Positions 1-11,425 of a stretch of DNA of 11,425 nt are shown here, in pieces (position 1 is the stretch's first letter; every line of letters starts with the position of its first letter). The notes below the pieces were generated by a model that was given only the letters and a program-made list of their open reading frames with translations, had not been told where the DNA came from and did not search any database. A program made the translations under genes and the position numbers. Source of the DNA: an archaeon. Lineage in GTDB: Archaea; Iainarchaeota; Iainarchaeia; Iainarchaeales; 1-14-0-10-31-34. The stretch covers positions 1 to 11,425 of the forward strand of contig JAJRVL010000010.1 in the NCBI GenBank assembly GCA_024277355.1, given 5' to 3'.

Positions 1-141
1 TCATTATTTTTAAGTTAAACTGATATAATTAATACAATACTTAAATAAAAAAAGTGGTATTTTGTTTGAATTTATAGCTTTTCTGATAACTTTAACAATT
101 CCTGGTTATTTGTTGGTTGAAAAGCATTTTTTTGGTTTGGA
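1..141. repeat. Terminal direct overlap, copy 1 (identical to 11285-11425); circular-closure signature
   Basis: Base-by-base comparison shows 1-141 equals 11285-11425 with no mismatch, and identity runs to the last base of the window. The repeat covers the GT2 start codon, the 57-bp intergenic region and the first 80 nt of the GT-C gene, so it is the same locus read twice rather than a discrete element. Confidence 0.97.
5..61. promoter_or_regulatory. Divergent intergenic control region between the GT2 gene (minus, ATG at 4-2 = 11288-11286) and the GT-C gene (plus, TTG at 62)
   Basis: 57 bp, almost pure A/T. TATA-like strings are tatttttaag (5-14), tataattaat (24-33) and ttaaataaaaa (41-51). 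A 7-bp perfect inverted repeat, tttaagt (9-15) / acttaaa (39-45), extends to 9/11 matches. GTGGT lies 4-8 nt upstream of TTG 62 and could be an SD-like element. No TSS data. Confidence 0.4.
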
Positions 142-1498
142 GAAATGGGTTTTGTCTGTTTTTTTGTCTTTGTCTGTTACTTCTTTTTTTTATTATTTCA
201 TGGTTTCTTTTTTTGGCATAACAAAAGAAATAATTTATTTTTATGCTTTAATTTTGTTAATTGTTTTTTTTGTGTTAAAAAAACCAAATTTTAAACGAGT
301 GTTTTATTCAATAAAAGAAATTAAGTTACCAAGCAAAACAGTTAAAAAAGAAAATTTATTTGAATTAACAGGAATTTTTATTTTAGTTTTTTGTTTTTCT
401 TTAATTGTTTTTTTTATTTATGCAGGGCAGCCTTATAGTTTTGATGATTCTGCTTATCATTTGCCTATTATTAATGATTTTGCTGATGATGGCGAAAAAA
501 CTTTTTTTGTTGAACCAAAAAATGTTTATGAATTAAGAAGCAATCAGTTTCCTTTGTTGTTTGAATCTTTTGCAGGAGTATCAAAGTTCTTTATTGGAGG
601 AAACTTATTTCATTTTATTTCTTTTTTTTCATTTGTTTTATCTTTATTTTTAGTTTATCTTATTAGTAAACTAACAGGCTATAATGAATTCTTTTCTTTG
701 GTTATTTTTGGTTTAACTCAATCTGTTCTAATTTTAACTCGTTATTTTAGTGCTGAAACTTTTCTGCCACTGCTTTTTTTGGGGGCAGTTTTTTTTGTTT
801 TAAAGTTTATTAAAACAGAAAAACTGTTTTTTATTTTTGTTTCTGGTTTTTTGGCTGGTTTAATGTTTTTATCTAAGTTTACTGGTTTTATTTTTTTTGC
901 TGGCTTATTTTTGTTTTTGCTGTATAAAAGAAAATTTAAAGAAAGTGTTTTATTTGCTTTAATTTTTGTTTTGATTTCTTCAGTTTTTTTTGTTTCTCAT
1001 CTAAATGTTTCTTTTAATGAAAATACTATGGGGGCTTATGGAAAAATAGTTGCTGAAAATATTTGGGATAAACCCTCTTTGAATTTTTTCAAAATTACTG
1101 AAATTTTATTTTATTTTTTTTCAAATAACTATTACTTTTTTTTGATTCCTTTACTTTTTGTTTTAGGTTTTTTTGGTCTGAAAGAAAAAGAATTAGATTT
1201 TTTTGTTTTAATGAACATTACTTTTGTTTTGTTTTTGTTTGTAAATGTTGTGAATCAAATGGTTCCCACTTACACAGGTTTTCCGCGTTATTTTCTTCCA
1301 ATTTATTCTTTATTGTGTATTTTTGCAGGCATCCAATTGAAAAAAGCATTTTTTTTCAGAAATAAGTTAATTAAAGTTTTATTAGGATTGATTTTTATTT
1401 TTTTGATTCTTTTTTCTTCTTTTTTTATTTTGGGGGTGTTCAACCATCAAGCAGGAAAAACTGTTTTTTATTCTGATAAACTGATTCCAAATAATTAA
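62..1498 (+). CDS. GT-C fold integral-membrane glycosyltransferase (ArnT / PMT_2 / GT39-GT83-like), membrane domain; the frame continues past an in-frame TAA at 1496-1498
   Basis: 478 aa and extremely hydrophobic, with roughly a dozen predicted TM segments. The acidic first-loop motif GQPYSFDDSAYHLPIINDF is typical of polyprenyl-phosphate-sugar dependent GT-C enzymes. No WWDYG motif, so not AglB/STT3. TTG start; the frame is closed upstream by TAA at 26-28. Confidence 0.75.
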   Translation: MFEFIAFLITLTIPGYLLVEKHFFGLEKWVLSVFLSLSVTSFFYYFMVSFFGITKEIIYFYALILLIVFFVLKKPNFKRVFYSIKEIKLPSKTVKKENLFELTGIFILVFCFSLIVFFIYAGQPYSFDDSAYHLPIINDFADDGEKTFFVEPKNVYELRSNQFPLLFESFAGVSKFFIGGNLFHFISFFSFVLSLFLVYLISKLTGYNEFFSLVIFGLTQSVLILTRYFSAETFLPLLFLGAVFFVLKFIKTEKLFFIFVSGFLAGLMFLSKFTGFIFFAGLFLFLLYKRKFKESVLFALIFVLISSVFFVSHLNVSFNENTMGAYGKIVAENIWDKPSLNFFKITEILFYFFSNNYYFFLIPLLFVLGFFGLKEKELDFFVLMNITFVLFLFVNVVNQMVPTYTGFPRYFLPIYSLLCIFAGIQLKKAFFFRNKLIKVLLGLIFIFLILFSSFFILGVFNHQAGKTVFYSDKLIPNN

Positions 1499-1543
1499 AA
1501 TGTTTCTGTTTGGTTTGTTAATGGTGCTGCTCCAATAACTGAA

Positions 1544-1777
1544 TTGAATAATGCTGTTTTGTATGATTATGCGTGGAATAATCGCGGCTGGACTTCTTGT
1601 GATTATTTAAATAAAATGAAAATAAATTATGTGGTTTATTATAAAACAGAAGAATCTTATAATCATTCTGATTCTTCAGATTTAAGTATTATTTTTCAAG
1701 AACATTCTTGTTTAGAATTTTTTTCTCAAACAGATTCTAATAATATAATTAATTCTGTGACCTTTAAAGTAAACTAA
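1544..1777 (+). CDS. Probable C-terminal extracytoplasmic domain of the same GT-C protein (same frame; open from 1499), separated only by one TAA
   Basis: 62 and 1544 are in the same frame. Codons 1499-1543 read NVSVWFVNGAAPITE with no stop, so 62-1777 is one 571-codon frame with a single TAA. The 77-aa piece has no signal peptide or TM of its own and only a TTG start. Confidence 0.5.
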   Translation: MNNAVLYDYAWNNRGWTSCDYLNKMKINYVVYYKTEESYNHSDSSDLSIIFQEHSCLEFFSQTDSNNIINSVTFKVN

Positions 1778-2105: not shown

Positions 2106-3506
2106 ATGTGTTCTATTTCAGGCGTGATTTCAAAGAAGAAAGAAAATGTATTTGATCATTTAATGGAATTATTGTTTGATTTAAAGCATAGAGGCAATGA
2201 TTCTTTTGGTGTTTCAATAAATAATAAAACAGTTACAGCTAAAACTATTTCTTTGTTAAGAGAAAAAGAAATTAAAGGTTTATCTGGAATAGCACATTCA
2301 AGATTAGAAATTACAGGAAAACAAACTCAACCTTTATCTTTTGGAAATTCTTCTGTTGTTTTTAACGGTCAAATTTATAATTTTTTTGAGTTTTCTGATT
2401 CTGATTCAGATGCAGTTTTTGTAAAAGAATTTTTTGAAAAAGAATTAAAGAAAAATTCAGTTGAATCTGCAGTAAAGAAATTTATGCAAAAAGCAAATGG
2501 ACAGTATTCTATTGCATTATTTCATAAAAAAAAGTTTTTTGTTTTCAGGGATTTATTTGGAATAAAACCTGTTTGGTTCGGCGAAAATGATTCTTTTATT
2601 GCTTTTTCTTCTGAACCTAAACCATTAAAAAAAATGAATATTAATTTTCCTTTGCCTTTGCTTCCGGGAAACTTATTAATTATGTCTGAAAAAGGAATTG
2701 AAGTAAGAAAAGTTTTTTCTTTTGATTTAATGAAAAAGAAATGTAAAACAAAAGCATCTTTTTTGGATTTAAAAAAAGCTTTTTTTGATTCTATTTATTT
2801 GCGTACCAGAAACTTAGATAAAGCAGGAGTATTGTTTTCAGGGGGAATTGATTCAAGTTTAATTGCTAAAACTGTTTCTTCTGTTGTTCCAAAAACTGAA
2901 TTATTTGCTGTTGGAATGGAAGATTCTCATGATATTGATTCAGCAGTTAAAGCTGCAGAAGAATTAAACTTAAAACTGCATTTAAGAATTTTAAAAAAAG
3001 ATGAATTAAAGGATTATTCATTGAAAAGTTTAAGTTTGCTTTCTTTTTTTGATGAAATGCAATTGCAGTTATCTGTTCCTGAATATGCTGTGTGTGAGTT
3101 AGCCAAAAAGCAGGGAATGAAAGTAATATTTTCAGGGCAAGGTTCAGATGAAATTTTTGCAGGTTATCATAGTTATTCTAAAGCTCTTTCTTCAAAAAAA
3201 AATATTTCAGATGAAATTTGGCATTCAATTCTTAATTTATGGAGCAGAAACCTTTACAGAGAAGATTTAATTTCAATGAATTTTTCTTTAGAACATAGAA
3301 TTCCTTTTTTGGATAAAGAATTAATTTGTACTGCAATGAAAATTCCTGTTAAACAGAAAATTTTTAATGAACAAGATAAATTAAGAAAAAGAATTTTAAG
3401 AAAACTTGCTTTGGATTTAGGTTTATCTGAAAGCATTGCATTAAAACCAAAAAAAGCTTTGCAGTATGGAACAGGAGTGTCAAAACATATAAGCAAGTTT
3501 TTTTAA
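2106..3506 (+). CDS. asnB: Asparagine synthase (glutamine-hydrolysing) family amidotransferase: class II Ntn glutaminase domain plus PP-loop ATP pyrophosphatase domain
   Basis: N-terminal MCSISGV gives Cys2 as the nucleophile. Other motifs: KHRGNDSFG, HSRLEITG, NGQIYNF, PP-loop LFSGGIDSSLIA, FSGQGSDEIFAGY, EHRIPFLD. At 466 aa it is shorter than E. coli AsnB. The symbol denotes family only; the substrate may not be aspartate (see findings). Confidence 0.9.
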   Translation: MCSISGVISKKKENVFDHLMELLFDLKHRGNDSFGVSINNKTVTAKTISLLREKEIKGLSGIAHSRLEITGKQTQPLSFGNSSVVFNGQIYNFFEFSDSDSDAVFVKEFFEKELKKNSVESAVKKFMQKANGQYSIALFHKKKFFVFRDLFGIKPVWFGENDSFIAFSSEPKPLKKMNINFPLPLLPGNLLIMSEKGIEVRKVFSFDLMKKKCKTKASFLDLKKAFFDSIYLRTRNLDKAGVLFSGGIDSSLIAKTVSSVVPKTELFAVGMEDSHDIDSAVKAAEELNLKLHLRILKKDELKDYSLKSLSLLSFFDEMQLQLSVPEYAVCELAKKQGMKVIFSGQGSDEIFAGYHSYSKALSSKKNISDEIWHSILNLWSRNLYREDLISMNFSLEHRIPFLDKELICTAMKIPVKQKIFNEQDKLRKRILRKLALDLGLSESIALKPKKALQYGTGVSKHISKFF

Positions 3507-4069
3507 ATTATAAAATAGTTTACATCCTGTAATCCTGACTGTTTGTCTATTATCATATAATTGCAGTCAGTGGTTGTGCTGTTATAATTTGCATCAATTA
3601 TTTTTTCAAATATAATATTTTTTTCATATAATGCAAGTGAATTTAAATCTAATCCAATTTCAAGTTTATGTCTGCATTGTAAATCCATGCTTATATTTAT
3701 GTCATAAATATTTAATTCTCCCACTGAATGAGGCAGGGTTATTGGACCTAATTTAGTTACATTAAAGTTTTCTATACTGCAGTCTGAATTTGTTGAAGCT
3801 AATACATTTTGGTCATAATAATAAATATTTGAATCTGGATTAAATAATCCTGTAAGGCAGTCGGCTGAATAAGCTGAATCAATTAGTGCATCTGCTGAAG
3901 CTTTATCTAATAATCTTTGAGTATTTTGCCATTGTTTTACAGTAAAAGAAAAACTTTCTTTTTGCGGGATTAATGCCTGGCTTTTGTTAAATGAATTAAC
4001 TGTAAATAATGCTGTTGATAAAACAATTAATGCTATTACTCAGATTAATACACTGTAATACCCCTTCAT
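3503..4069 (-). pseudogene. Fourth class III signal peptide (type IV pilin-like) gene, interrupted by in-frame TGA at 4042-4040 (codon 10)
   Basis: My own reverse-complement translation from ATG 4069-4067 gives MKGYYSVLI*VIALIVLSTALFTVNSFNKSQALIPQKESFSFTVKQWQNTQRLLDKASADALIDSAYSADCLTG...HSVGELNIYD. This is in frame with the tracked ORF 3503-3724. The ATG overlaps the upstream gene's TGA stop (ATGA). The hydrophobic stretch spanning the TGA looks like a pilin N-terminal helix. Confidence 0.6.
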
Positions 4070-4404
4070 CTTAAACTCCTTTTACCCATGCAGTATTTTT
4101 TTTCAATTAATTCTCCTTTGCCGTAAATTAGCTGGTAGTCCATATTGTAATCATATAAAATAAAGCATTCTGCATAATCAAAATTATTGAAATCTGAATT
4201 GCCTGACTGCAAGCCAATATCTTCTGCTGTTTTTCCCTGATAAAATCCTGTTATTGCCTGATTTGGAAGTTCTTGTTTAATAAAAGAAATATTTGCTTCA
4301 CTTCCTTCTTCTATTGAATAAGGAAAAGTCATAATTAATGTAATAATTATTACTGTTGTTAATCCAATTAATGCATCTGTACTAAACATAAATCCTTTAG
4401 TCAT
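4066..4404 (-). CDS. Class III signal peptide / type IV pilin-like protein (112 aa)
   Basis: N-terminus is MTKG|FMFSTDALIGLTTVIIITLIMTF: a short basic n-region and KG before a roughly 20-residue hydrophobic helix. The start overlaps the upstream gene end by 8 nt (ATGACTAA). Two Cys, one N-x-S/T sequon. Confidence 0.6.
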   Translation of the reverse strand: MTKGFMFSTDALIGLTTVIIITLIMTFPYSIEEGSEANISFIKQELPNQAITGFYQGKTAEDIGLQSGNSDFNNFDYAECFILYDYNMDYQLIYGKGELIEKKYCMGKRSLR

Positions 4405-5038
4405 TTTTCCACACCAAAAATTTTATTGTTGCAGGATACATAAAACAGTTTGCTGTATTTCCTGTAATGCAGTATTCCATTTCATTTTTATCTATTGTTA
4501 ATGTTTTTCCGTTTTCGGTATCTGAATGAATCATTACATTTAAGTCTATTGCATAAATATTTTTTGCTAATGCTGGAGGAGAAATTTCACAGTCTGATAA
4601 CAGTGTTGCGTTTTCATCTGGATTTAATCTTCCGCCTAATACTTTAATATAACAAGAATAATCTTTAGGCAACCCTAAAAATTCTTTTAATATTGGCTTA
4701 AATGTTCTGTGATTATTTCCATATTTATCCCATGTTTTGCAGTCGGCTTCACTTCCCCCGCAGTCAGATAAATTTAATGCAAATTCCGGAATGCAGTTGC
4801 TTGCATAAGAAATTATTTTGTTTTTATCTCTTATATCAACTAACTCGCAGATAATTCTTGGATTATTTACCATTAAAACTGAAGCAGTTTTTCCTGTTAT
4901 TTGTGTTTCATCTTTTAATTGTTTGTCTTTGAAATTATAGTTTTCTATTTCGCTTAACTGCATAACTAAACCTATTGCTAAAACAACCAAAACTAATGAC
5001 ATTATGAAATCAAGTGATACTAATTGTCCTTTTTTCAT
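4397..5038 (-). CDS. Class III signal peptide / archaeal type IV pilin-like protein (213 aa), cysteine-rich ectodomain
   Basis: N-terminus is MKKG|QLVSLDFIMSLVLVVLAIGLV. It matches the archaeal prepilin pattern (K/R)G followed by Q-x-S-x-(D/E)-(F/L) and a hydrophobic helix (Class_III signal / DUF361-like). Eight Cys. The start overlaps the upstream stop (ATGA). Confidence 0.75.
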   Translation of the reverse strand: MKKGQLVSLDFIMSLVLVVLAIGLVMQLSEIENYNFKDKQLKDETQITGKTASVLMVNNPRIICELVDIRDKNKIISYASNCIPEFALNLSDCGGSEADCKTWDKYGNNHRTFKPILKEFLGLPKDYSCYIKVLGGRLNPDENATLLSDCEISPPALAKNIYAIDLNVMIHSDTENGKTLTIDKNEMEYCITGNTANCFMYPATIKFLVWKND

Positions 5039-5478
5039 GTTGTTTCACCTAATATTTCTTTGTTTAAGTCTATTGTCATTCCACAGAAATAATTCAGGCT
5101 TGTTGTTGCAGTAAAATTAAAGTTTATGTCTTTTTGGACTGCTACTTCATTTAAGTCAGTTGAATAATGGCTTATTCTGATAAAAGGAGTTGTACTTCTA
5201 TTTAGTGTTATGTTGCAGTCTTGTCCTCCTCTTTTATCTGAATCAAAAATAAATGGAACTTTATAATTAATGCTATAATTGCTGTCTGTTTCATCAAATA
5301 CTTTTGCTTGATTAATTAATTCAAGTAAATCGTTTGCAATATTTTCTTGTTGTGCTCTTATTCCTGTTGTTCTTTCACTTAAAGTTAATTCGCCTGTAAA
5401 AGTCATAAATACGTTTCCTAAAAGTATTGCTGCAATGACTGTAAGCATTAAATCCAAACTAATTTGTCCTTTTTTCAT
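5035..5478 (-). CDS. Class III signal peptide / archaeal type IV pilin-like protein, first gene of the operon
   Basis: I prefer ATG 5478-5476, giving MKKG|QISLDLMLTVIAAILLG. This is paralogous to the next gene's MKKGQLVSLDF, and 15 nt at the 5' end (atgaaaaaaggacaa) are identical in both genes. The tracked TTG at 5499 would add the hydrophobic MYSYLLI before the basic n-region, which is atypical. Two Cys, four N-x-S/T sequons. Confidence 0.75.
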   Translation of the reverse strand: MKKGQISLDLMLTVIAAILLGNVFMTFTGELTLSERTTGIRAQQENIANDLLELINQAKVFDETDSNYSINYKVPFIFDSDKRGGQDCNITLNRSTTPFIRISHYSTDLNEVAVQKDINFNFTATTSLNYFCGMTIDLNKEILGETT

Positions 5479-5517
5479 AATTAATAGATAAGAATACAAT
5501 TCAAGAATATTTAAACC
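5479..5517 (-). promoter_or_regulatory. Candidate promoter of the pilin-like operon
   Basis: Minus-strand tttaaata (plus coordinates 5508-5515) is centred about 33 nt upstream of ATG 5478. That spacing is compatible with an archaeal TATA box and a very short 5' UTR. It lies in the 39-nt gap after the gpmI stop. Confidence 0.4.
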
Positions 5518-7050
5518 TTAATGTAGTATTATGCTTTTTCCTGTCATTTCTTTTGGTTTTTTTATTCCAAGCAATTCAATTATTGTAGGGCTTATATCAA
5601 TTAATCCTGCATTTTTCTTTAATTTTATTTTTTTTAGTTTTTCTTTTCCTGAAACAATAATTAAAGGCACTTTATTCAAAGTGTGTGCTGGACAAACTTG
5701 TTTATTTGAATAAAACATTTGCTCTGCATTTCCATGGTCTGCTGTAATTATTGCTGTTCCGTTTTTTTTCAGTATTTCTTTTATTATTTCTCCAATACAT
5801 TTATCTACTGTTTTTACTGCTTTAATGACTGCATTTAATTTTCCTGAATGGCCGACTAAATCAGGGTTAGCAAAATTTAATATTATTACATTTTGTTTTC
5901 CTTTTTTTATTTCCTGTAAAACTTTGTTTTTAACTTTTATTGCACTCATTTCAGGTTTTAAATCATAAGAAGGAACTTTAGGAGAATTAACTAAAATTCT
6001 TTTTTCTTTTTTGTTTGGTTTTTCTGTTTGGCTGTTAAAAAAGAAAGTTACATGAGCATATTTTTCTGTTTCTGCGATTCTTAATTGATTTAAATTGTTT
6101 TTGGCTAAAACATTTCCTAAATTATTTTTTACTTTTGTTTGTTCAAATGCAATTCCTGCTTTTATTTTTTTTTCATATCTTGTCATGCATACAAAATTTA
6201 CTTTAGGGGATTTAAATTTTCTTTCAGTAAAGCATTTAGTTAACTGCCTGCTTCTGTCTGAACGGAAATTAAAGAAAATAATTAAATCATCTTGTTTTAT
6301 TTTCCCGTTTTCATTTAAACAAATAGGTTTAACATAATAATCTGTTTTATCTCCTCTTTTATATGCGTTTTTTACTGCAGTTAAAGCATTTTTTTCTTTA
6401 AATCCTTTGCCTTTTACAAGCAATTCTATTGTTTGTTTTGTTCTGTTCCAGTTGTTGTCTCTGTCCATTGCATAATATCTTCCTATAATGCTGGTAATTT
6501 TCCCGACTCCAATTTTTTTTATTTCTTTTTCTAATTCTTTTAAGTATTTTCCTGCAGATTTTTCAGGAACATCTCTTCCATCTAAAAAACAGTGAATAAA
6601 TACTTTGTTTATTTTCATTTTTTTTGTTAGTTTCATTAAAGCATACAAATGCTGTGTTGTTGCATGAACTCCTTCATCTGAAAGCAGTCCCATTAAATGA
6701 ACTGCTTTATTTTTTTCTTTTGCTTTTTTTACTGCTTTAACTAAAGTTTCATTTCTATAAAAACTTTTATTTTTTATTGCTTTATTAATTAACATTAATG
6801 GCTGAAAAACAATTCGTCCTGCTCCAATATGCAAATGTCCTACTTCTGAGTTTCCCTGACTTTTTGGAGGCAAACCAACATCTGCTCCTGAACAATTTAA
6901 TTCTGTATTAGAATAATTTTTTAAATAATTTAAATAGTTTTTTGGTTTAGCTAAAAAAACTGCGTTTCCTTTTTTTTGTTTGCTTTTTCCCCAGCCGTCC
7001 ATTATAATTAAAATCAAAGGAACATTTTCTTTTTTTTTCATTTTTTTCAC
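5518..7050 (-). CDS. gpmI: 2,3-bisphosphoglycerate-independent phosphoglycerate mutase (iPGM, GpmI type)
   Basis: Near-complete set of family motifs: LIIMDGWG, NSEVGHLHIGAGRIV (catalytic Ser), GLLSDEGVHAT, HCFLDGRDV, GRYYAMDRDNNWNR, NFANPDLVGHSG, ITADHGNAE. 510 aa from GTG 7050. ATG 7041 (MKKKENVPLILIIMDGWG), preceded by aagtga, is an equally plausible start. Confidence 0.95.
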   Translation of the reverse strand: MKKMKKKENVPLILIIMDGWGKSKQKKGNAVFLAKPKNYLNYLKNYSNTELNCSGADVGLPPKSQGNSEVGHLHIGAGRIVFQPLMLINKAIKNKSFYRNETLVKAVKKAKEKNKAVHLMGLLSDEGVHATTQHLYALMKLTKKMKINKVFIHCFLDGRDVPEKSAGKYLKELEKEIKKIGVGKITSIIGRYYAMDRDNNWNRTKQTIELLVKGKGFKEKNALTAVKNAYKRGDKTDYYVKPICLNENGKIKQDDLIIFFNFRSDRSRQLTKCFTERKFKSPKVNFVCMTRYEKKIKAGIAFEQTKVKNNLGNVLAKNNLNQLRIAETEKYAHVTFFFNSQTEKPNKKEKRILVNSPKVPSYDLKPEMSAIKVKNKVLQEIKKGKQNVIILNFANPDLVGHSGKLNAVIKAVKTVDKCIGEIIKEILKKNGTAIITADHGNAEQMFYSNKQVCPAHTLNKVPLIIVSGKEKLKKIKLKKNAGLIDISPTIIELLGIKKPKEMTGKSIILH

Positions 7051-7137: not shown

Positions 7138-7503
7138 TCATTCAATTATTTCTATTGTTATTTCTTTTCCTGTTTCATCAAATGATTTAATATTATCTAA
7201 ATTAAAAGGCCAACAAATTATTAAGTGTATTTTTCCTAAAACAGAGAAAACATTTAAGTCTGCTGAAGAAGGATTGTTGTTTGGGGATGGGTGTGAATGG
7301 ATTGTTCCAATAATTTTTGAGTCAAACGGAATTAAGTCTGTTCTGATTGAAGAAAAATTTTTACCATAAACTGCCGGCAATACTACTAATTCATCTACTT
7401 CTTCTTTTTCATTTTTTCCTAACATTGAAATGAATTCATTTGGATAAACTTTTCTTGAAGCCATTAAAATTGATTCCAAAACACTTTTTTTTATTTTATG
7501 CAT
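7138..7503 (-). CDS. Stand-alone JAB1/MPN/Mov34 (JAMM) zinc metalloprotease, minimal archaeal type (121 aa)
   Basis: The JAMM motif is complete: upstream Glu in YPNEF, then GTIHSHPSPNNNPSSADL (H-x-H-x7-S-x2-D). The start overlaps the upstream gene end by 8 nt (ATGCATAA). Ends with TGA. Confidence 0.85.
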   Translation of the reverse strand: MHKIKKSVLESILMASRKVYPNEFISMLGKNEKEEVDELVVLPAVYGKNFSSIRTDLIPFDSKIIGTIHSHPSPNNNPSSADLNVFSVLGKIHLIICWPFNLDNIKSFDETGKEITIEIIE

Positions 7504-8413
7504 TTGTTTTCTTCCTTTTTAGAATAAAACTGAATTCATCATAAAATAATGCAAGAAAAACTCCTGCAATAATATAAGATGAAACTAGAAAAATAAACGC
7601 TATTAAAGCAGAATATTCTGGCCCAACTCCAACTAAAGAATAAAGATAAATCAAAATTCCTTCTCTTAATCCTAAACCATTAATTGTTATGGGAATAAGC
7701 CCTATAAGTAGTGCTAAAGATGAAATTAATGCAATATCAATTAATTCAACTTTTTGCCCTAATGCTGAGAATAATATTTGTGTTATCCAAAACATTAAAA
7801 TAAAATTAATTAAAGAAAAAAAGTAATTTGTCAATATTGCTTTTTTTTCAGTTTTAAGATATTCTTTACTTTCTATGAATAATTTATAAATTTTGTTAAC
7901 TAATTTTATTTTTTTTATTTTGTTTTTTAATCCAAGTAAAATAAAAACAACTATAAAAAAAGTAATCAAATAACTAATATCTGGTTTAACTTCAAAATAT
8001 TTTATTAATGCTATTAAAGAAAAAAACCCTATAATTGAAAAAGAAACAAATCTGTCAATAAAGAAAATAGCAAGTGCTTTTTTTGTTGAAACATCTGCTT
8101 TTTTTAAAAGCAAAGCAAAAGACATTTCGCCTATTTTTCCCGGCAAAAACATTCCAGTTGACCAGCTTATTGCTTTAAATCTAAATGTCTGATAAGTTGT
8201 TGTTTTAAGAAATGGTTTTACTGCTAAAGTAGTGATTACTGTTGAAACAACAAAAAAAAATCCAACTAAAACAAAATATTCAATTTTTATCTTTGTTAAT
8301 GCATCTGAAATTTCTTTTAATCCTATAAATTGAATTATAAAAAATAGGATGATAATACTTGTTGCTGTTTTTAGGACAGTTTTTAATTTATTGTTTTTAT
8401 TCATTTCAATCAA
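7496..8413 (-). CDS. LPG_synthase_TM / UPF0104 flippase-like multi-pass membrane protein
   Basis: About 8 TM segments with family-typical loops FLPGKIGEMSFALLLKK and ITINGLGLREGILIYLY. TTG at 8413 is the tracked start. ATG 8404 (MNKNNKLK...) is more likely the real start. Confidence 0.7.
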   Translation of the reverse strand: MIEMNKNNKLKTVLKTATSIIILFFIIQFIGLKEISDALTKIKIEYFVLVGFFFVVSTVITTLAVKPFLKTTTYQTFRFKAISWSTGMFLPGKIGEMSFALLLKKADVSTKKALAIFFIDRFVSFSIIGFFSLIALIKYFEVKPDISYLITFFIVVFILLGLKNKIKKIKLVNKIYKLFIESKEYLKTEKKAILTNYFFSLINFILMFWITQILFSALGQKVELIDIALISSLALLIGLIPITINGLGLREGILIYLYSLVGVGPEYSALIAFIFLVSSYIIAGVFLALFYDEFSFILKRKKTNA

Positions 8414-8474
8414 TCTTTACTAAAAATAATTCAAGGCAATTCAATTAAAAATAGCTTTTGATTTATAAATAACT
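8414..8474. promoter_or_regulatory. Divergent promoter region between the flippase-like gene and the methyltransferase gene
   Basis: ttaaaaata (8445-8453) is centred about 26 nt upstream of ATG 8475, suggesting a leaderless mRNA. tttataaat (8462-8470) and taaaaataa (8421-8429) are further TATA-like candidates usable on either strand. No experimental support. Confidence 0.35.
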
Positions 8475-9287
8475 ATGGAAAAGATAAAAGAAAGAGCATC
8501 TTTTAGCTGTTCTGTTTTTGCCGAAAACTGGAAATCATTAGAAGAATATCTTCTTTTTTTAAAGGAAATTTTTGCATATGATTTTGCAGCAAATAAAATT
8601 TCTAAAGATTCAACAGTATTAGAGCTTGGTTTTGGAGAAGGTTTTGGAACAAAAATGCTTGCAAAAAAAGCAAAAAAAGTTTTTGCATTAGATGTAGACG
8701 AAAAAGCATTTAATCATGCAAAACAAAAATATTCTTCTGAAAAAATACTTTTTAGTTTATATAACGGAAAAAAAATTCCTTTTGAAGATAACTATTTTGA
8801 TGCAGTTGTTTCTTTACAGGTAATTGAACATATCAAAGACGATTTTAATTTTGTTAATGAAATTTACCGAGTAACAAAAAAAAACGCAGTAGTAATTATT
8901 ACGACGCCTAATAGAAAAATAAGACTTAAAGAAAACAGCAAACCCTGGAATGAATTTCATTGCAAAGAATATTCAGAAAAAGAGCTTGAAAATTTGTTTA
9001 ATAATTTCAGTTCAGTAAATATTTTTGGAGTGTTTGCAAGTAAAGAAATTATGAAAACAGAATTAAACAGAATTAAAAAAGCAGTTTTTATGGCTTCATT
9101 AGATCCCTTTAAATTAAGAAAATTTTTTCCATTTTATTTAAAAAATACTCTAAAAAAAATAATAAAAAAAGTATTTGCAAATGAAAAAAGAGAATTTGAC
9201 CAGAAAAAATTCAGTCATAAAGATTTTTTTATTTCAGAAAAAAATGCAGATAACTCTCTTGACTTACTAGCAGTGTGTAGAAAATAA
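8475..9287 (+). CDS. Class I SAM-dependent methyltransferase (Methyltransf_11/23-like)
   Basis: Motif I VLELGFGEGFGTKMLA, the acidic residue after beta-2 in VFALDVDEKA, and motif IV region FDAVVSLQVIEHI. 270 aa, with a C-terminal Lys-rich extension. Confidence 0.85.
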   Translation: MEKIKERASFSCSVFAENWKSLEEYLLFLKEIFAYDFAANKISKDSTVLELGFGEGFGTKMLAKKAKKVFALDVDEKAFNHAKQKYSSEKILFSLYNGKKIPFEDNYFDAVVSLQVIEHIKDDFNFVNEIYRVTKKNAVVIITTPNRKIRLKENSKPWNEFHCKEYSEKELENLFNNFSSVNIFGVFASKEIMKTELNRIKKAVFMASLDPFKLRKFFPFYLKNTLKKIIKKVFANEKREFDQKKFSHKDFFISEKNADNSLDLLAVCRK

Positions 9288-9289
9288 AA
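9280..9289 (-). terminator. Candidate oligo-T terminator (TTTTATTTT on the minus strand) right after the GT4 TGA stop, inside the 3' end of the convergent methyltransferase gene
   Basis: Plus strag 9281-9289 reads aaaataaaa, which is ttttatttt on the minus strand and starts 1 nt after the stop at 9292-9290. The assignment is weak because such runs are common in this composition. Confidence 0.25.
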
Positions 9290-10399
9290 TCAGTTTATTT
9301 CATTTAATCTTTCTTTTAATTCTTTTCCAATTTTTTCTATAATAAATTTTTCTTTAAATAAATTATATCCATTTAAAGCTATTCTTTCTCTTAAAACTTT
9401 ATTTTTTTTAAGTTCAATTATAGTGTTAGCAAGACTTTTTTCACCATTCATTCTGCAAAAAAATATGTTTTCTTTATGGCTAAACACCTCTTTCACTGCT
9501 TTAGATTCTCTTGTTATTACAGGTTTTTTCATTGCAATACATTGAAATACTTTGTTTGGAATTACATTTGAAGCTTTTTCTGTTTTCCCAAAAATTCCCA
9601 AACAGACATCAAATCTTGCAATTTTTCCTGGAAGTTCTTCTAATTTAACTGGTTTAAAAAATTTAATATTTGAAATATTGTTTTGTTTTGCTAAATTACT
9701 TATTTCCACATAAAGCTGTCCTTTTCCTATTATTTCAAACTCGATGTTTTCTTTTTCAAGTATTTTTACTGCTTTAATAATATATTTTATTCCATGTAAT
9801 GGAATAAAAGTTCCATAAAATCCTACTTTAAATTTTTTGTTTTCTTTTGGTTTTTTTGGGTAAAAAATTGTTTCATCTGCCCCAACAAAAACTTTAATGA
9901 ATTTATTTTTGTTTAATCCAAATTTGTTTGTAAAATAATTTATATGTGATTCAGTATCAAGAATTATTTTGTTGCTTAATTTTAATCCAAATTTTTCCAG
10001 ATAAAATACTATTTTTGCGGTAATTGAATTTTCTTTTATTACTTTTCTGTCTTCAATTAAAGTGTTGTAAATAGAAACTAAAGGATTAATTACGAGTTTT
10101 TTTCTTGAAAAAAAAGAAATTATTTTAGCTAAAAAAACATCAGGGAAAGAAGGAAACCCAACTAAAATTAAATCGTAGTTTTTTATTTTAACAGATTTTA
10201 TAATTAATTTTAAATAAGCTGAAAAATAATCAATTATTAAACTAAGATTTTCTATTATAAAATTTTTTGAGTATTTTTTTCTTTTTTTTATTGGAACATT
10301 AATTTCAATTACTTTAACATCATTTTTTTTTAGCCCTTCAATAAAAATCTTGTTTCTTGGATAATTTTTTTCATATGTACCAAAATAAAGTATTTTCAT
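9290..10399 (-). CDS. GT-B fold glycosyltransferase, group 1 / GT4-like
   Basis: 369 aa. The N-terminal MKILYFGTYEKNYPRN and central VGFYGTFIPLHGIKYIIKA resemble the Glyco_trans_4 and Glycos_transf_1 architecture. The C-terminal FDVCLGIFGKTEKASNVIPNKVFQCIAMKKPVIT corresponds to the nucleotide-sugar binding E-x7-E region, here degenerate. The ATG lies 4 nt after the GT2 stop. Confidence 0.75.
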   Translation of the reverse strand: MKILYFGTYEKNYPRNKIFIEGLKKNDVKVIEINVPIKKRKKYSKNFIIENLSLIIDYFSAYLKLIIKSVKIKNYDLILVGFPSFPDVFLAKIISFFSRKKLVINPLVSIYNTLIEDRKVIKENSITAKIVFYLEKFGLKLSNKIILDTESHINYFTNKFGLNKNKFIKVFVGADETIFYPKKPKENKKFKVGFYGTFIPLHGIKYIIKAVKILEKENIEFEIIGKGQLYVEISNLAKQNNISNIKFFKPVKLEELPGKIARFDVCLGIFGKTEKASNVIPNKVFQCIAMKKPVITRESKAVKEVFSHKENIFFCRMNGEKSLANTIIELKKNKVLRERIALNGYNLFKEKFIIEKIGKELKERLNEIN

Positions 10400-10403
10400 T
10401 TTT

Positions 10404-11288
10404 TCACTTTTTCATGTCAGCCAGAAAACCAAATAAAATAATTTGTAATCCGGTTACAATTAAAATCATTGTTAAAATCATTAAGGCAATATGCCCTTCT
10501 ATTCCTGAAGTTAAATGCAAAAACACTAAATATAACCCCGTCAAAAAACCTAATCCAAATAAGCTTCCTCCAATTAAACCAAAAAACTTTAATGGAGCAT
10601 AATCTCTGTAAACTCTTAAAATGTTAAGCCATGCTTTAATTGCATAATCAAAAGGATTAGACATTAACCTGCTTTCTCCTTGAGTTCTTTTTCTGAAAGT
10701 GCATGGAATTTCTTTTACTTTAAATTTTTCTTTTGTTGTTCTGATTATTTGTTCTTGTGTGTAAGTGTAATTTGCGATTATATCTAATTTTGCTATTTTT
10801 TGGTTAAATGCTCTAAATCCTGTTTGTGCATCAGTTATTTGCTGGTGAGTTATGTTTGAAATCACTTTAGAGAAAGCTTTGTTGCCTAATTTTTTGATTA
10901 AAGGCATTTCTTCTATTTTTCCTGCAAATCTGCTTGCTAAAACTAAATCATTTCCTTTTCTTACTTCTTTTATCATTAAAGGAATTATTTTTGGGTCATA
11001 TTGTCCGTCTGCGTCAACATGAATTATTATTTCAGGATTTAATTTTAATGCCTGTTTCATTTCTGTTCTAAAAGTTTCAGCTAAACCTGAATTTCTTGGA
11101 TGAGAAAAAACAATTGCATTTTCTTTTTTTGCTTCTATTACAGTATTATCTTTACTGCCGTCATCTAATACAAGAATTTTATATTCTTCATTTTTCAGAT
11201 ATTGTTTTAATTCTCTTATCACTGAAGAAATTGTTTTTTCTTCATTGAATGCAGGAATAGTTATTACAATTATTTTTTTTCCCCTCAT
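10404..11288 (-). CDS. GT2 family polyprenyl-phosphate sugar synthase-like glycosyltransferase (DPM1 / GtrB / ArnC-like) with two C-terminal TM helices
   Basis: Motifs IIVITIPAFNEEKTI, ILVLDDGSKDNT, HVDADGQYDP (DxD) and QTGFRAF. Two C-terminal TM helices follow: LKFFGLIGGSLFGLGFLTGLYLVFLHL and HIALMILTMILIVTGLQIILFGFLADM. This GT-A domain plus C-terminal TM pair is the GtrB/ArnC architecture. The start codon lies inside the terminal overlap. Confidence 0.9.
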   Translation of the reverse strand: MRGKKIIVITIPAFNEEKTISSVIRELKQYLKNEEYKILVLDDGSKDNTVIEAKKENAIVFSHPRNSGLAETFRTEMKQALKLNPEIIIHVDADGQYDPKIIPLMIKEVRKGNDLVLASRFAGKIEEMPLIKKLGNKAFSKVISNITHQQITDAQTGFRAFNQKIAKLDIIANYTYTQEQIIRTTKEKFKVKEIPCTFRKRTQGESRLMSNPFDYAIKAWLNILRVYRDYAPLKFFGLIGGSLFGLGFLTGLYLVFLHLTSGIEGHIALMILTMILIVTGLQIILFGFLADMKK

Positions 11289-11425
11289 TATTTTTAAGTT
11301 AAACTGATATAATTAATACAATACTTAAATAAAAAAAGTGGTATTTTGTTTGAATTTATAGCTTTTCTGATAACTTTAACAATTCCTGGTTATTTGTTGG
11401 TTGAAAAGCATTTTTTTGGTTTGGA
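11285..11425. repeat. Terminal direct overlap, copy 2 (identical to 1-141)
   Basis: See copy 1. It contains the duplicated intergenic region (11289-11345) and a redundant copy of codons 1-26 of the GT-C gene (11346-11425), which is not an independent gene. Confidence 0.97.

Follow-up and report, generated by a model that had tools for sequence, protein, structure and literature searches.

The question raised by this locus is whether a set of glycosyltransferase (GT) and membrane-protein genes lying beside pilin-like genes forms an independent element that makes a fibre and glycosylates it, or belongs to the chromosome of its archaeal host. The window analysed here is the whole stretch of 11,425 nt, which constitutes the entire contig C8 (GC 25.6%) of a 1.13-Mb genome (G000) assembled in 11 contigs at a completeness of 96%. 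The gene content of this genome is archaeal (ABCE1, pelota, ELP3, FlaI/FlaJ, prepilin peptidase, class III signal peptides and AglB), and the database labels on close homologues read 'Candidatus Micrarchaeota archaeon' or 'archaeon'. Comparison with 60 relatives of the same order (61 genomes including G000) indicates that the window probably holds a variable surface-glycan cassette in a ~1.1-Mb DPANN chromosome, inside a conserved block with a type IV pilus operon, and that the cassette would make a short lipid-linked methylated glycan, flip it across the membrane and transfer it on the outside. The mechanistic steps are proposed from the family membership of the individual enzymes.

The putative donor synthase is a family 2 GT with a C-terminal membrane hairpin (GT2-TM; 10404..11288, minus strand) of the DPMS/ArnC/GtrB/AglJ type, as assigned by PF00535 (78 bits vs a cut-off of 23.3), NCBIfam models and phmmer against PDB sequences, where Pyrococcus furiosus DPMS (5mlz) was matched at 1.9e-19. 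The protein aligns over its full length, including the C-terminal transmembrane hairpin, with DPMS, ArnC (9hwj) and GtrB (5ekp); residues 5-291 of 294 align to ArnC 9-293 and GtrB 29-308, covering both hydrophobic helices. Its DAD motif lies in 'IIHVDADGQYD', in which 'HVDADGQ' pairs with 'MDADLQ' of DPMS and 'LDADLQ' of ArnC. Family and full-length alignments thus agree with the GtrB/ArnC/DPM1 design proposed by the first-pass annotation. Among the NCBIfam models AglJ scored best (146 bits), followed by a dolichyl-phosphate (Dol-P)-hexose transferase (87 bits), with PpgS and ArnC also matched. The AglJ score is below its 325-bit cut-off and the other models are further below theirs, and none of the matches reaches the level of an equivalog that would point to a sugar specificity. 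The GT2-TM is 79-84% identical in four congeners, and its orthologues at or above 55% identity are confined to genomes bearing the GT-C transferase described below (G002-G005, G008 and G027).

The gene at 7496..8413 (minus strand) encodes a UPF0104 protein (LPG_synthase_TM, the MprF flippase-domain family). Both curated cut-offs are exceeded, with PF03706 at 94 bits vs 33.4 over profile positions 2-297 of 302 and the 'flippase-like' model TIGR00374 at 69 bits vs 43.2, which bears out the family assignment made initially; the PF03706 model was itself built on the transmembrane region of MprF. A phmmer search of PDB with this protein returned nothing at E<=1. No match to the GtrA family (PF04138) was found in the 96% complete genome, and the position of a small GtrA/EmrE-type flippase is taken by UPF0104. 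UPF0104 is a predicted flippase for the lipid-linked glycan, on the strength of a published prediction (PMC5898192) and of its context, namely its replacement by Wzx in G002 and its proximity to GT2-TM genes elsewhere: in eight further relatives, loci other than this one carry a GT2-TM and a UPF0104 gene no more than ~9 kb apart. Orthologues 59-63% identical occupy the same slot in G003 and G004.

The third component is a PMT_2-type membrane transferase of the GT-C class. The window carries a broken second copy (62..1777, plus strand): the open reading frames (ORFs) 62-1498 and 1499-1777 constitute one frame of 478 codons, a single TAA at 1496-1498 and then 92 in-frame codons, which encode the extracytoplasmic C-terminal domain. 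An intact paralogue of 558 uninterrupted amino acids lies on contig C2 (C2:524899-526572), divergent from GT2-TM across a 57-nt spacer. PMT_2 (PF13231) passed narrowly on the broken copy (28.7 bits vs 26.1) and also exceeded the gathering score on the intact one. It is the sole Pfam match of the kind, as neither PF02366, which marks PMT proper (GT39), nor MIR matched the GT-C; the 'family 39' label that NCBI attaches to homologues is an automatic annotation. A profile search against PDB sequences gave noise alone, and fold comparison was used instead. The AlphaFold2 model of the intact protein (pLDDT 76.6, pTM 0.79) was matched by Foldseek to ArnT 5f15 first (E 3.7e-6, TM-score 0.52-0.55) and further to ALG12, STT3, DPY19, ALG9, Pmt4, AftB and PglB, with Pmt1, Pmt2 and Pmt4 ranking below ArnT, ALG and STT3. 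The top 37 PDB matches are all of GT-C fold or relatives of it, including a GT-C-like GPI-transamidase subunit. An acidic motif is conserved across 22 homologues (D111 invariant, D112 in at least 90%, then H116 and P118), and the broken copy retains it as 'FDDSAYHLP'. The Asp-Asp pair is presumably located in the first large extracytoplasmic loop, given the Lys-rich, presumably cytoplasmic, loop that precedes it. The PMT_2 match, the fold and the Asp-Asp motif all place the protein among glycosyltransferases and not in another class of membrane family; judged by the structural model, ORF 62-1777 is a true GT-C of ArnT/STT3/ALG fold. The subfamily is narrow, being present in 9 of the 61 genomes and represented by 23 proteins among 5.8 billion in databases.

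The first-pass annotation had noted that the key transferase carries a nonsense codon. The TAA is present in the sequence, but the gene that it interrupts is the second copy, and the view that it cripples the system is not supported, the partner of GT2-TM being the intact paralogue. The two copies are 55% identical overall, with near-complete identity in the first 80 residues, more than 80% at residues 121-160 and much lower identity in the C-terminal third. At the nucleotide level the pair is a mosaic: 238 identical nt at the start are followed by a stretch of ~87% identity as far as window position 592, beyond which identity drops to ~70% or less. Gene conversion or recombination affecting the 5' end and the shared promoter may account for this pattern. 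The identical segment, at 1..238 in the window, comprises the divergent GT2/GT-C promoter spacer and the first 59 GT-C codons, and occurs twice in the chromosome. No internal stop was found in the C2 paralogue or in the homologues of relatives, whose frames span 510-594 amino acids, two of them cut by contig ends. An alternative genetic code was set aside because TAA is an ordinary stop here and all GT-C homologues are uninterrupted. Genome-wide there are 102 same-frame ORF pairs split by one stop, mostly adjacent genes of a compact genome and uninformative on read-through. The window copy would thus be a decaying duplicate, and the active enzyme would be the intact copy on C2.

Further nonsense codons were noted in the vicinity and in relatives. 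The TctA-like gene (PF01970) next to the intact GT-C (C2:523733-524908; L010:9159-10334, plus strand) is a frame of ~391 codons with a single TAA (L010 9792-9794), whereas in relatives it is a single ORF of 388-400 amino acids. G000 thus has two private TAA nonsense codons, in the broken GT-C and in the TctA-like gene, within a few kb. The G004 orthologue of GT2-TM (L040:2289-3164, G004:C66) is interrupted as well, by a single in-frame TAA close to its 5' end. The knock-out of cassette genes thus seems to have happened repeatedly in different species.

Between the genes of the donor synthase and the flippase candidate lie two genes for soluble enzymes. A GT4 (Glycos_transf_1; 9290..10399, minus strand; PF00534 at 53 bits, PF13692 at 52 bits) starts 4 nt downstream of GT2-TM, and a class I S-adenosylmethionine (SAM) methyltransferase (Methyltransf_11; 8475..9287, plus strand; PF08241 at 74 bits) is convergent with it. 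The GT4 slot is filled in G002, G003 and G004 as well, by proteins with only 23-35% identity to the window GT4 in partial alignments; across the congeners GT4 identities range from 23% to 74%. The methyltransferase slot of the congeners is occupied by an FkbM/RfbT-type enzyme (PF05050) unrelated to Methyltransf_11. Slots for a GT2-TM, a GT4, a methyltransferase, a flippase and a GT-C recur in four congeners, but the GT4 and methyltransferase that fill them are non-orthologous. The fillers are GT2-TM, GT4, Methyltransf_11 and UPF0104 in G000; GT2-TM, GT4', FkbM and UPF0104 in G003; GT2-TM with its in-frame TAA, GT4, FkbM and UPF0104 in G004; and GT2-TM, GT4 plus a further GT2, FkbM and Wzx in G002, where Wzx (PF01943, 100 bits) replaces UPF0104. 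The GT-C homologues of the congeners are 53-59% identical to the intact G000 copy. In G003 the genes from GT2-TM through iPGM overlap or abut on one strand. The recurrence of GT4 and methyltransferase as functional slots agrees with a possible role as glycan builders or decorators, and a constant entry enzyme with a variable middle and transferase fits a single pathway with a species-specific glycan. Two small SAM methyltransferases (208 and 183 amino acids) were also observed at the end of contig C11 (L009:10594-11846), directly upstream of the broken GT-C. As a homologue of the 183-residue protein adjoins GT2-TM in the G027 cassette (L033:8005-8508), methyltransferases recur with this GT-C family.

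In the pathway that we consider probable, GT2-TM would place a hexose on dolichyl phosphate at the cytoplasmic face. The soluble GT4 would extend the lipid-linked sugar and the SAM methyltransferase would cap it by O-methylation; because neither has transmembrane segments, both would act before flipping. UPF0104 would then flip the lipid-linked glycan outward, and the PMT_2-type GT-C (the intact C2 copy) would transfer it to a surface acceptor on the outer face. The three-part logic of polyprenyl-phosphate-sugar synthase, UPF0104 and GT-C, put forward initially, is upheld by the family assignments, by the divergent arrangement of GT2-TM and GT-C, by the Wzx replacement in G002 and by the neighbourhood described in PMC5898192. 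GT2-TM and GT-C are divergent neighbours in G003, G004, G008 and G027, which are related genomes and not independent samples.

The same enzymes could operate by a simpler scheme of the classic AglD/AglR/AglS or GtrABC kind, in which GT2-TM makes a Dol-P-monosaccharide, UPF0104 flips it, and GT-C adds a single sugar to a protein or to an existing glycan such as the AglB-made N-glycan, while GT4 and the methyltransferase serve another cytoplasmic pathway. This scheme is possible, though we do not favour it. All characterised GT2-TM/GT-C pairs work in this way (established knowledge, supported by PMC11127046), and the minimal cassettes of G027 and G008 consist of GT2-TM and GT-C with no orthologue of the window UPF0104. 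G008 moreover has two GT2-TM and two GT-C genes in a 1:1 ratio, and the AglB island of the genome could supply an acceptor glycan. Against it, GT4 and the methyltransferase have been kept in all four congener cassettes despite non-orthologous replacement, and in G003 they are translationally coupled between GT2-TM and UPF0104. The G002 cassette, furthermore, combines an extra GT2 with a Wzx-type flippase, which is typical of oligosaccharide carriers. The GT4 and methyltransferase slots, together with the extra GT2 and Wzx of G002, point tentatively to a longer methylated glycan.

The AglB-containing island just mentioned lies on contig C10 (G000:C10:21696-42508) and encodes AglB/STT3 in a 672-residue frame (AglB at C10:21696-22826). 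Judged by gene content, the cassette pathway would be additional to canonical N-glycosylation. Also in the island are a paralogue of UPF0104 (25582-26466; 169 bits) and several GT2 genes (at 28.3, 33.1 and 37.5 kb), and the one Wzx found in the genome lies there at 41684-42508. A larger glycosylation island was observed in G006, which lacks the cassette (L044, G006:C3:85000-99000). It comprises two UPF0104 genes, a GT2-TM, a DPM1-like GT2, a GT4 and three multi-transmembrane proteins (381, 507 and 532 amino acids) without a Pfam match. The 381- and 507-residue proteins have ArnT/PMT-like 'DE' motifs after the first transmembrane helix and may be unrecognised GT-C enzymes.

A second alternative is a glycolipid pathway, in which GT4 and UPF0104 make and flip a glycosylated membrane lipid in the manner of GpgS/GpgF or HexSDF, and an ArnT-like GT-C decorates the lipid. 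A parallel is GpgSDF of Pseudomonas aeruginosa, in which a GT4 works on phosphatidylglycerol together with a deacetylase and a candidate flippase of the UPF0104 family (PMC12713373), and contexts with UPF0104 beside a deacetylase plus a GT have been noted by Makarova et al. (PMC5898192). The best structural match of the GT-C, ArnT, is itself a lipid modifier, but the Foldseek scores of STT3, ALG12 and DPY19 are as good. The window cassette resembles GpgSDF/HexSDF (PMC12713373) in combining a GT4 with a UPF0104 flippase candidate in one operon; it differs in having no deacetylase and in adding the GT2-TM and GT-C that those operons lack. Moreover, GT4 is the least conserved of the components and GT2-TM with UPF0104 the conserved pair. 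A glycolipid product is therefore unlikely.

Several observations weigh against the pathway favoured here. The three-component systems characterised so far carry, to our knowledge, one sugar at a time. In G000 the methyltransferase is encoded on the opposite strand, and the action of GT4 and the methyltransferase on the same lipid intermediate is read from their co-location alone. No orthologue of the window UPF0104 was found at E<=1e-10 anywhere in the G027 and G008 genomes, and G018 and G039 have GT-C at the site without a GT2-TM detectable at E<=1e-20. Pseudogenisation of one GT-C copy here and of GT2-TM in G004 suggests relaxed selection. The path by which contigs C11, C8 and C2 are joined depends on synteny and assembly-graph logic. 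Finally, flipping of dolichol-linked sugars by UPF0104 has never been demonstrated, only MprF-type phospholipid flipping being known (PMC5898192, PMC12713373).

The physical context of the cassette bears on the proposal that the window is an autonomous 11.3-kb circular element encoding a pilus fibre and the machinery for glycosylating its own pilin. In favour of that proposal are an exact terminal direct repeat of 141 nt (11285..11425, identical to 1-141), the presence of pilin-like and GT genes together on one contig, and a GC content slightly lower than that of the other contigs (25.6% vs 26.1-28.7%). The 141-mer is not private to C8, however, as it is also the last 141 nt of C11 (C11:104293-104433), and exact 141-nt ends are common to the contig pairs C1/C3, C4/C6 and C7/C10. 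Because C11 and three other contig pairs carry such ends, they are explained as overlaps of a k=141 assembly graph. The copy at 11285..11425 leads into the intact GT-C at the C2 end: window 108-238 is identical to the C2 end read in reverse, after which C2 runs on as the uninterrupted paralogue. The broken GT-C was thus not adjacent to GT2-TM across a closure point; the real divergent partner of GT2-TM is the intact paralogue at the C2 end, while the broken copy adjoins the 183- and 208-residue methyltransferases of C11 in the real chromosome.

The order C11, C8 and reverse C2 is fixed by synteny with a 364-kb contig of a congener (G003:C1), where ThrRS, FlaI, FlaJ, FlaJ, PibD, two pilins, a gene designated 186, the TctA-like gene, GT-C (minus), GT2-TM (plus), GT4, the methyltransferase, UPF0104, JAB, iPGM, three pilins, AsnB, ABCE1, pelota and ELP3 are contiguous. 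The gene order is also chromosomal and contiguous in G006, G023, G048 and others. Relative to G003, G000 has an extra segment between ABCE1 and AsnB that consists of the 208- and 183-residue methyltransferases, the repeat and the broken GT-C; as this segment holds the nonsense-bearing gene, that gene is the duplicate. A genome search located the only iPGM and the only JAB gene of G000 on C8, no replication or mobility gene occurs among the family matches of the window, and the pilins and AsnB are kept by relatives without the cassette. From this synteny the window is a segment of the chromosome and not a free circle, and an autonomous element is most improbable; the self-contained module that would make both fibre and glycan dissolves into a glycosylation cassette and a backbone to which AsnB and the pilins belong. 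Other 'circular' contigs from such assemblies need the same check, as the signal for a circle here is an artefact of the graph. The shared 141-nt ends (C1/C3, C4/C6, C7/C10 and C11/C8) are usable for scaffolding G000.

The backbone genes in the window are AsnB (2106-3506, plus strand), three or four pilin-like genes with class III signal peptides (3503-5499, minus strand), the single-copy iPGM (5518-7050, minus strand) and, immediately outside the cassette, a JAB/MPN protein (7138..7503, minus strand; PF14464). In most of the 60 relatives, a gap of 27-80 nt separates the TctA-like gene from JAB. Genomes without the cassette (G006, G023, G022, G048 and G032) mostly keep the order of pilus operon, TctA, JAB, usually iPGM, a second pilin set, usually AsnB, and ABCE1. 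With pilins, iPGM, JAB and AsnB as backbone, the glycosylation genes constitute an insert at one hot spot between the TctA-like gene and JAB-iPGM. On every GT-C contig of sufficient length the gene occupies this site, and on shorter ones it is flanked by pilus-operon or TctA-like genes; the shortness of many of these contigs accords with a variable region. Two further genomes have different genes at the same site. G059 (C3, L042:1378-2715) carries a TnpB-like ORF of 445 amino acids, and G020 (C2, L041:1563-3741) a soluble DPM1-like GT2 (234 amino acids) with a PF10131 'PTPS_related' membrane protein (498 amino acids). The TctA/JAB site may, as these occupants suggest, be a recombination hot spot that receives different pairs of GT2 and membrane transferase.

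Two candidate connections between backbone and cassette were rejected. The overlap of JAB with UPF0104 was considered as functional coupling, but in genomes lacking the cassette JAB adjoins the TctA-like gene, and the overlap is a consequence of insertion. AsnB, an amidotransferase that in the first-pass annotation could build or decorate the glycan, was rejected as a part of the cassette because it neighbours ABCE1 in relatives whether or not they carry the cassette.

The acceptor of the glycan has several candidates. The pilins are one by virtue of position, and a tentative one; S-layer or other secreted proteins, the AglB-made N-glycan and lipid are also candidates. Three to four genes separate the cassette from the closest pilin genes in both directions, and UPF0104 is encoded on the same strand as JAB, iPGM and the pilins. 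All GT-C contexts recovered for this narrow family represent one inherited synteny block of pilus operon, TctA, cassette, JAB, iPGM and pilins, together with housekeeping genes, and the pilins persist in relatives that lack the cassette. A test of Ser/Thr and sequon composition gave no clear O-glycosylation signature for the pilins: serine plus threonine account for 11-18% of the whole protein in the five pilin-like proteins, while across the ORFs of the genome the mean is 12% and the 95th percentile 19%. The corresponding value for O-glycosylated pilins of Sulfolobus is ~37% (PMC7347861). A more specific proposal is that the PMT_2-type GT-C is an AglB-independent archaeal protein glycosyltransferase that takes a short glycan with a methyl cap from dolichyl phosphate and attaches it to Ser/Thr (or Asn) residues of type IV pilins or of other proteins at the surface, with UPF0104 as the flippase; this appears rather doubtful.

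A bacterial precedent for a pilin acceptor is TfpW, a GT-C-type enzyme encoded at the pilin locus of Pseudomonas aeruginosa with group IV pilins, which uses a polyprenyl-phosphate-sugar to O-glycosylate pilin (bioRxiv 10.1101/2020.04.19.049825). The present GT-C is likened to it, as in the first-pass annotation, by class and by its location near type IV pilin genes. TfpW immediately adjoins pilA, whereas the GT-C here is three to four genes removed from pilins that are not Ser/Thr-rich and that exist in relatives without GT-C.

Further known systems help to place the cassette. In Haloferax volcanii (AglJ/AglG-I-E/AglP/AglB and AglD/AglR/AglS) a GT2-TM starts a Dol-P glycan, soluble GTs extend it, a SAM methyltransferase acts on it, and flipping precedes transfer by a GT-C outside. 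The cassette would share with this system the GT2-TM start, with AglJ as the best NCBIfam match, the soluble GT, the SAM methyltransferase, the flipping step and the GT-C finish. It differs in that the terminal enzyme is a PMT_2/ArnT-like GT-C and not STT3/AglB, and that its GT2-TM is no AglJ equivalog (146 vs 325 bits). AglD is discussed in PMC5898192. The bacterial three-component systems GtrA/GtrB/GtrC, ArnC/ArnE-F/ArnT and CsbB/GtcA/YfhO are well established (PMC11127046, PMC5836110). They share the sequence of membrane-anchored GT2, polyprenyl-phosphate-sugar, flip and GT-C, and the resemblance extends to the alignment of GT2-TM with ArnC and GtrB and to ArnT as the nearest match of the GT-C model. 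Here, by contrast, UPF0104 stands in place of a GtrA/EmrE-type flippase, the additional GT4 and methyltransferase hint at a cargo of more than one sugar, and the carrier would be archaeal dolichol.

The module type has already been predicted for archaea. Makarova, Galperin and Koonin (2015; PMC5898192) predicted arCOG00899 (UPF0104) to be a flippase encoded with arCOG00897 (AglD-like GT2) and arCOG00563 (PMT/STT3-like), as in MJ_1079/MJ_1080. The present locus, too, encodes these three protein classes together in an archaeon, and the roles proposed for them (donor synthase, flippase and outer-face transferase) agree. The window cassette differs from that neighbourhood in having GT4 and the methyltransferase as fixed slots, in being of a type that admits Wzx in the flippase slot, and in its location at a hot spot inside a pilus-bearing synteny block; its GT-C, compared here at the level of protein class, is of a narrow subfamily. 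This locus adds to the prediction a natural exchange of slot fillers, with UPF0104 giving way to Wzx in one congener, GT4 and methyltransferase slots that stay fixed, and a hot-spot position beside the pilus operon.

According to a 2018 review (PMC6098224), the enzymes behind archaeal O-glycosylation had not been identified, and a subsequent literature search turned up no identification of them; the flippases for dolichol-linked sugars have likewise not been identified experimentally (PMC6098224; PMC5898192). The locus provides a reasonable candidate for experiment and no more, a compact and fairly well-delimited set of five genes, with natural swap variants in four congeners, that bears on the flipping of polyprenol-linked glycans by UPF0104 and on the cargo and acceptor of an archaeal PMT_2-type GT-C. 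If the GT-C is indeed an AglB-independent protein glycosyltransferase, it would provide a first genetic handle on archaeal O-glycosylation, and the exchange of GT4, methyltransferase, flippase and GT-C from species to species would represent surface-glycan diversification, possibly driven by viruses or hosts that recognise the pilus. The locus also indicates that DPANN archaea with genomes of ~1 Mb maintain a hypervariable island for surface glycans, located at a constant chromosomal hot spot beside the genes of the pilus, which bears on host attachment and on virus recognition.

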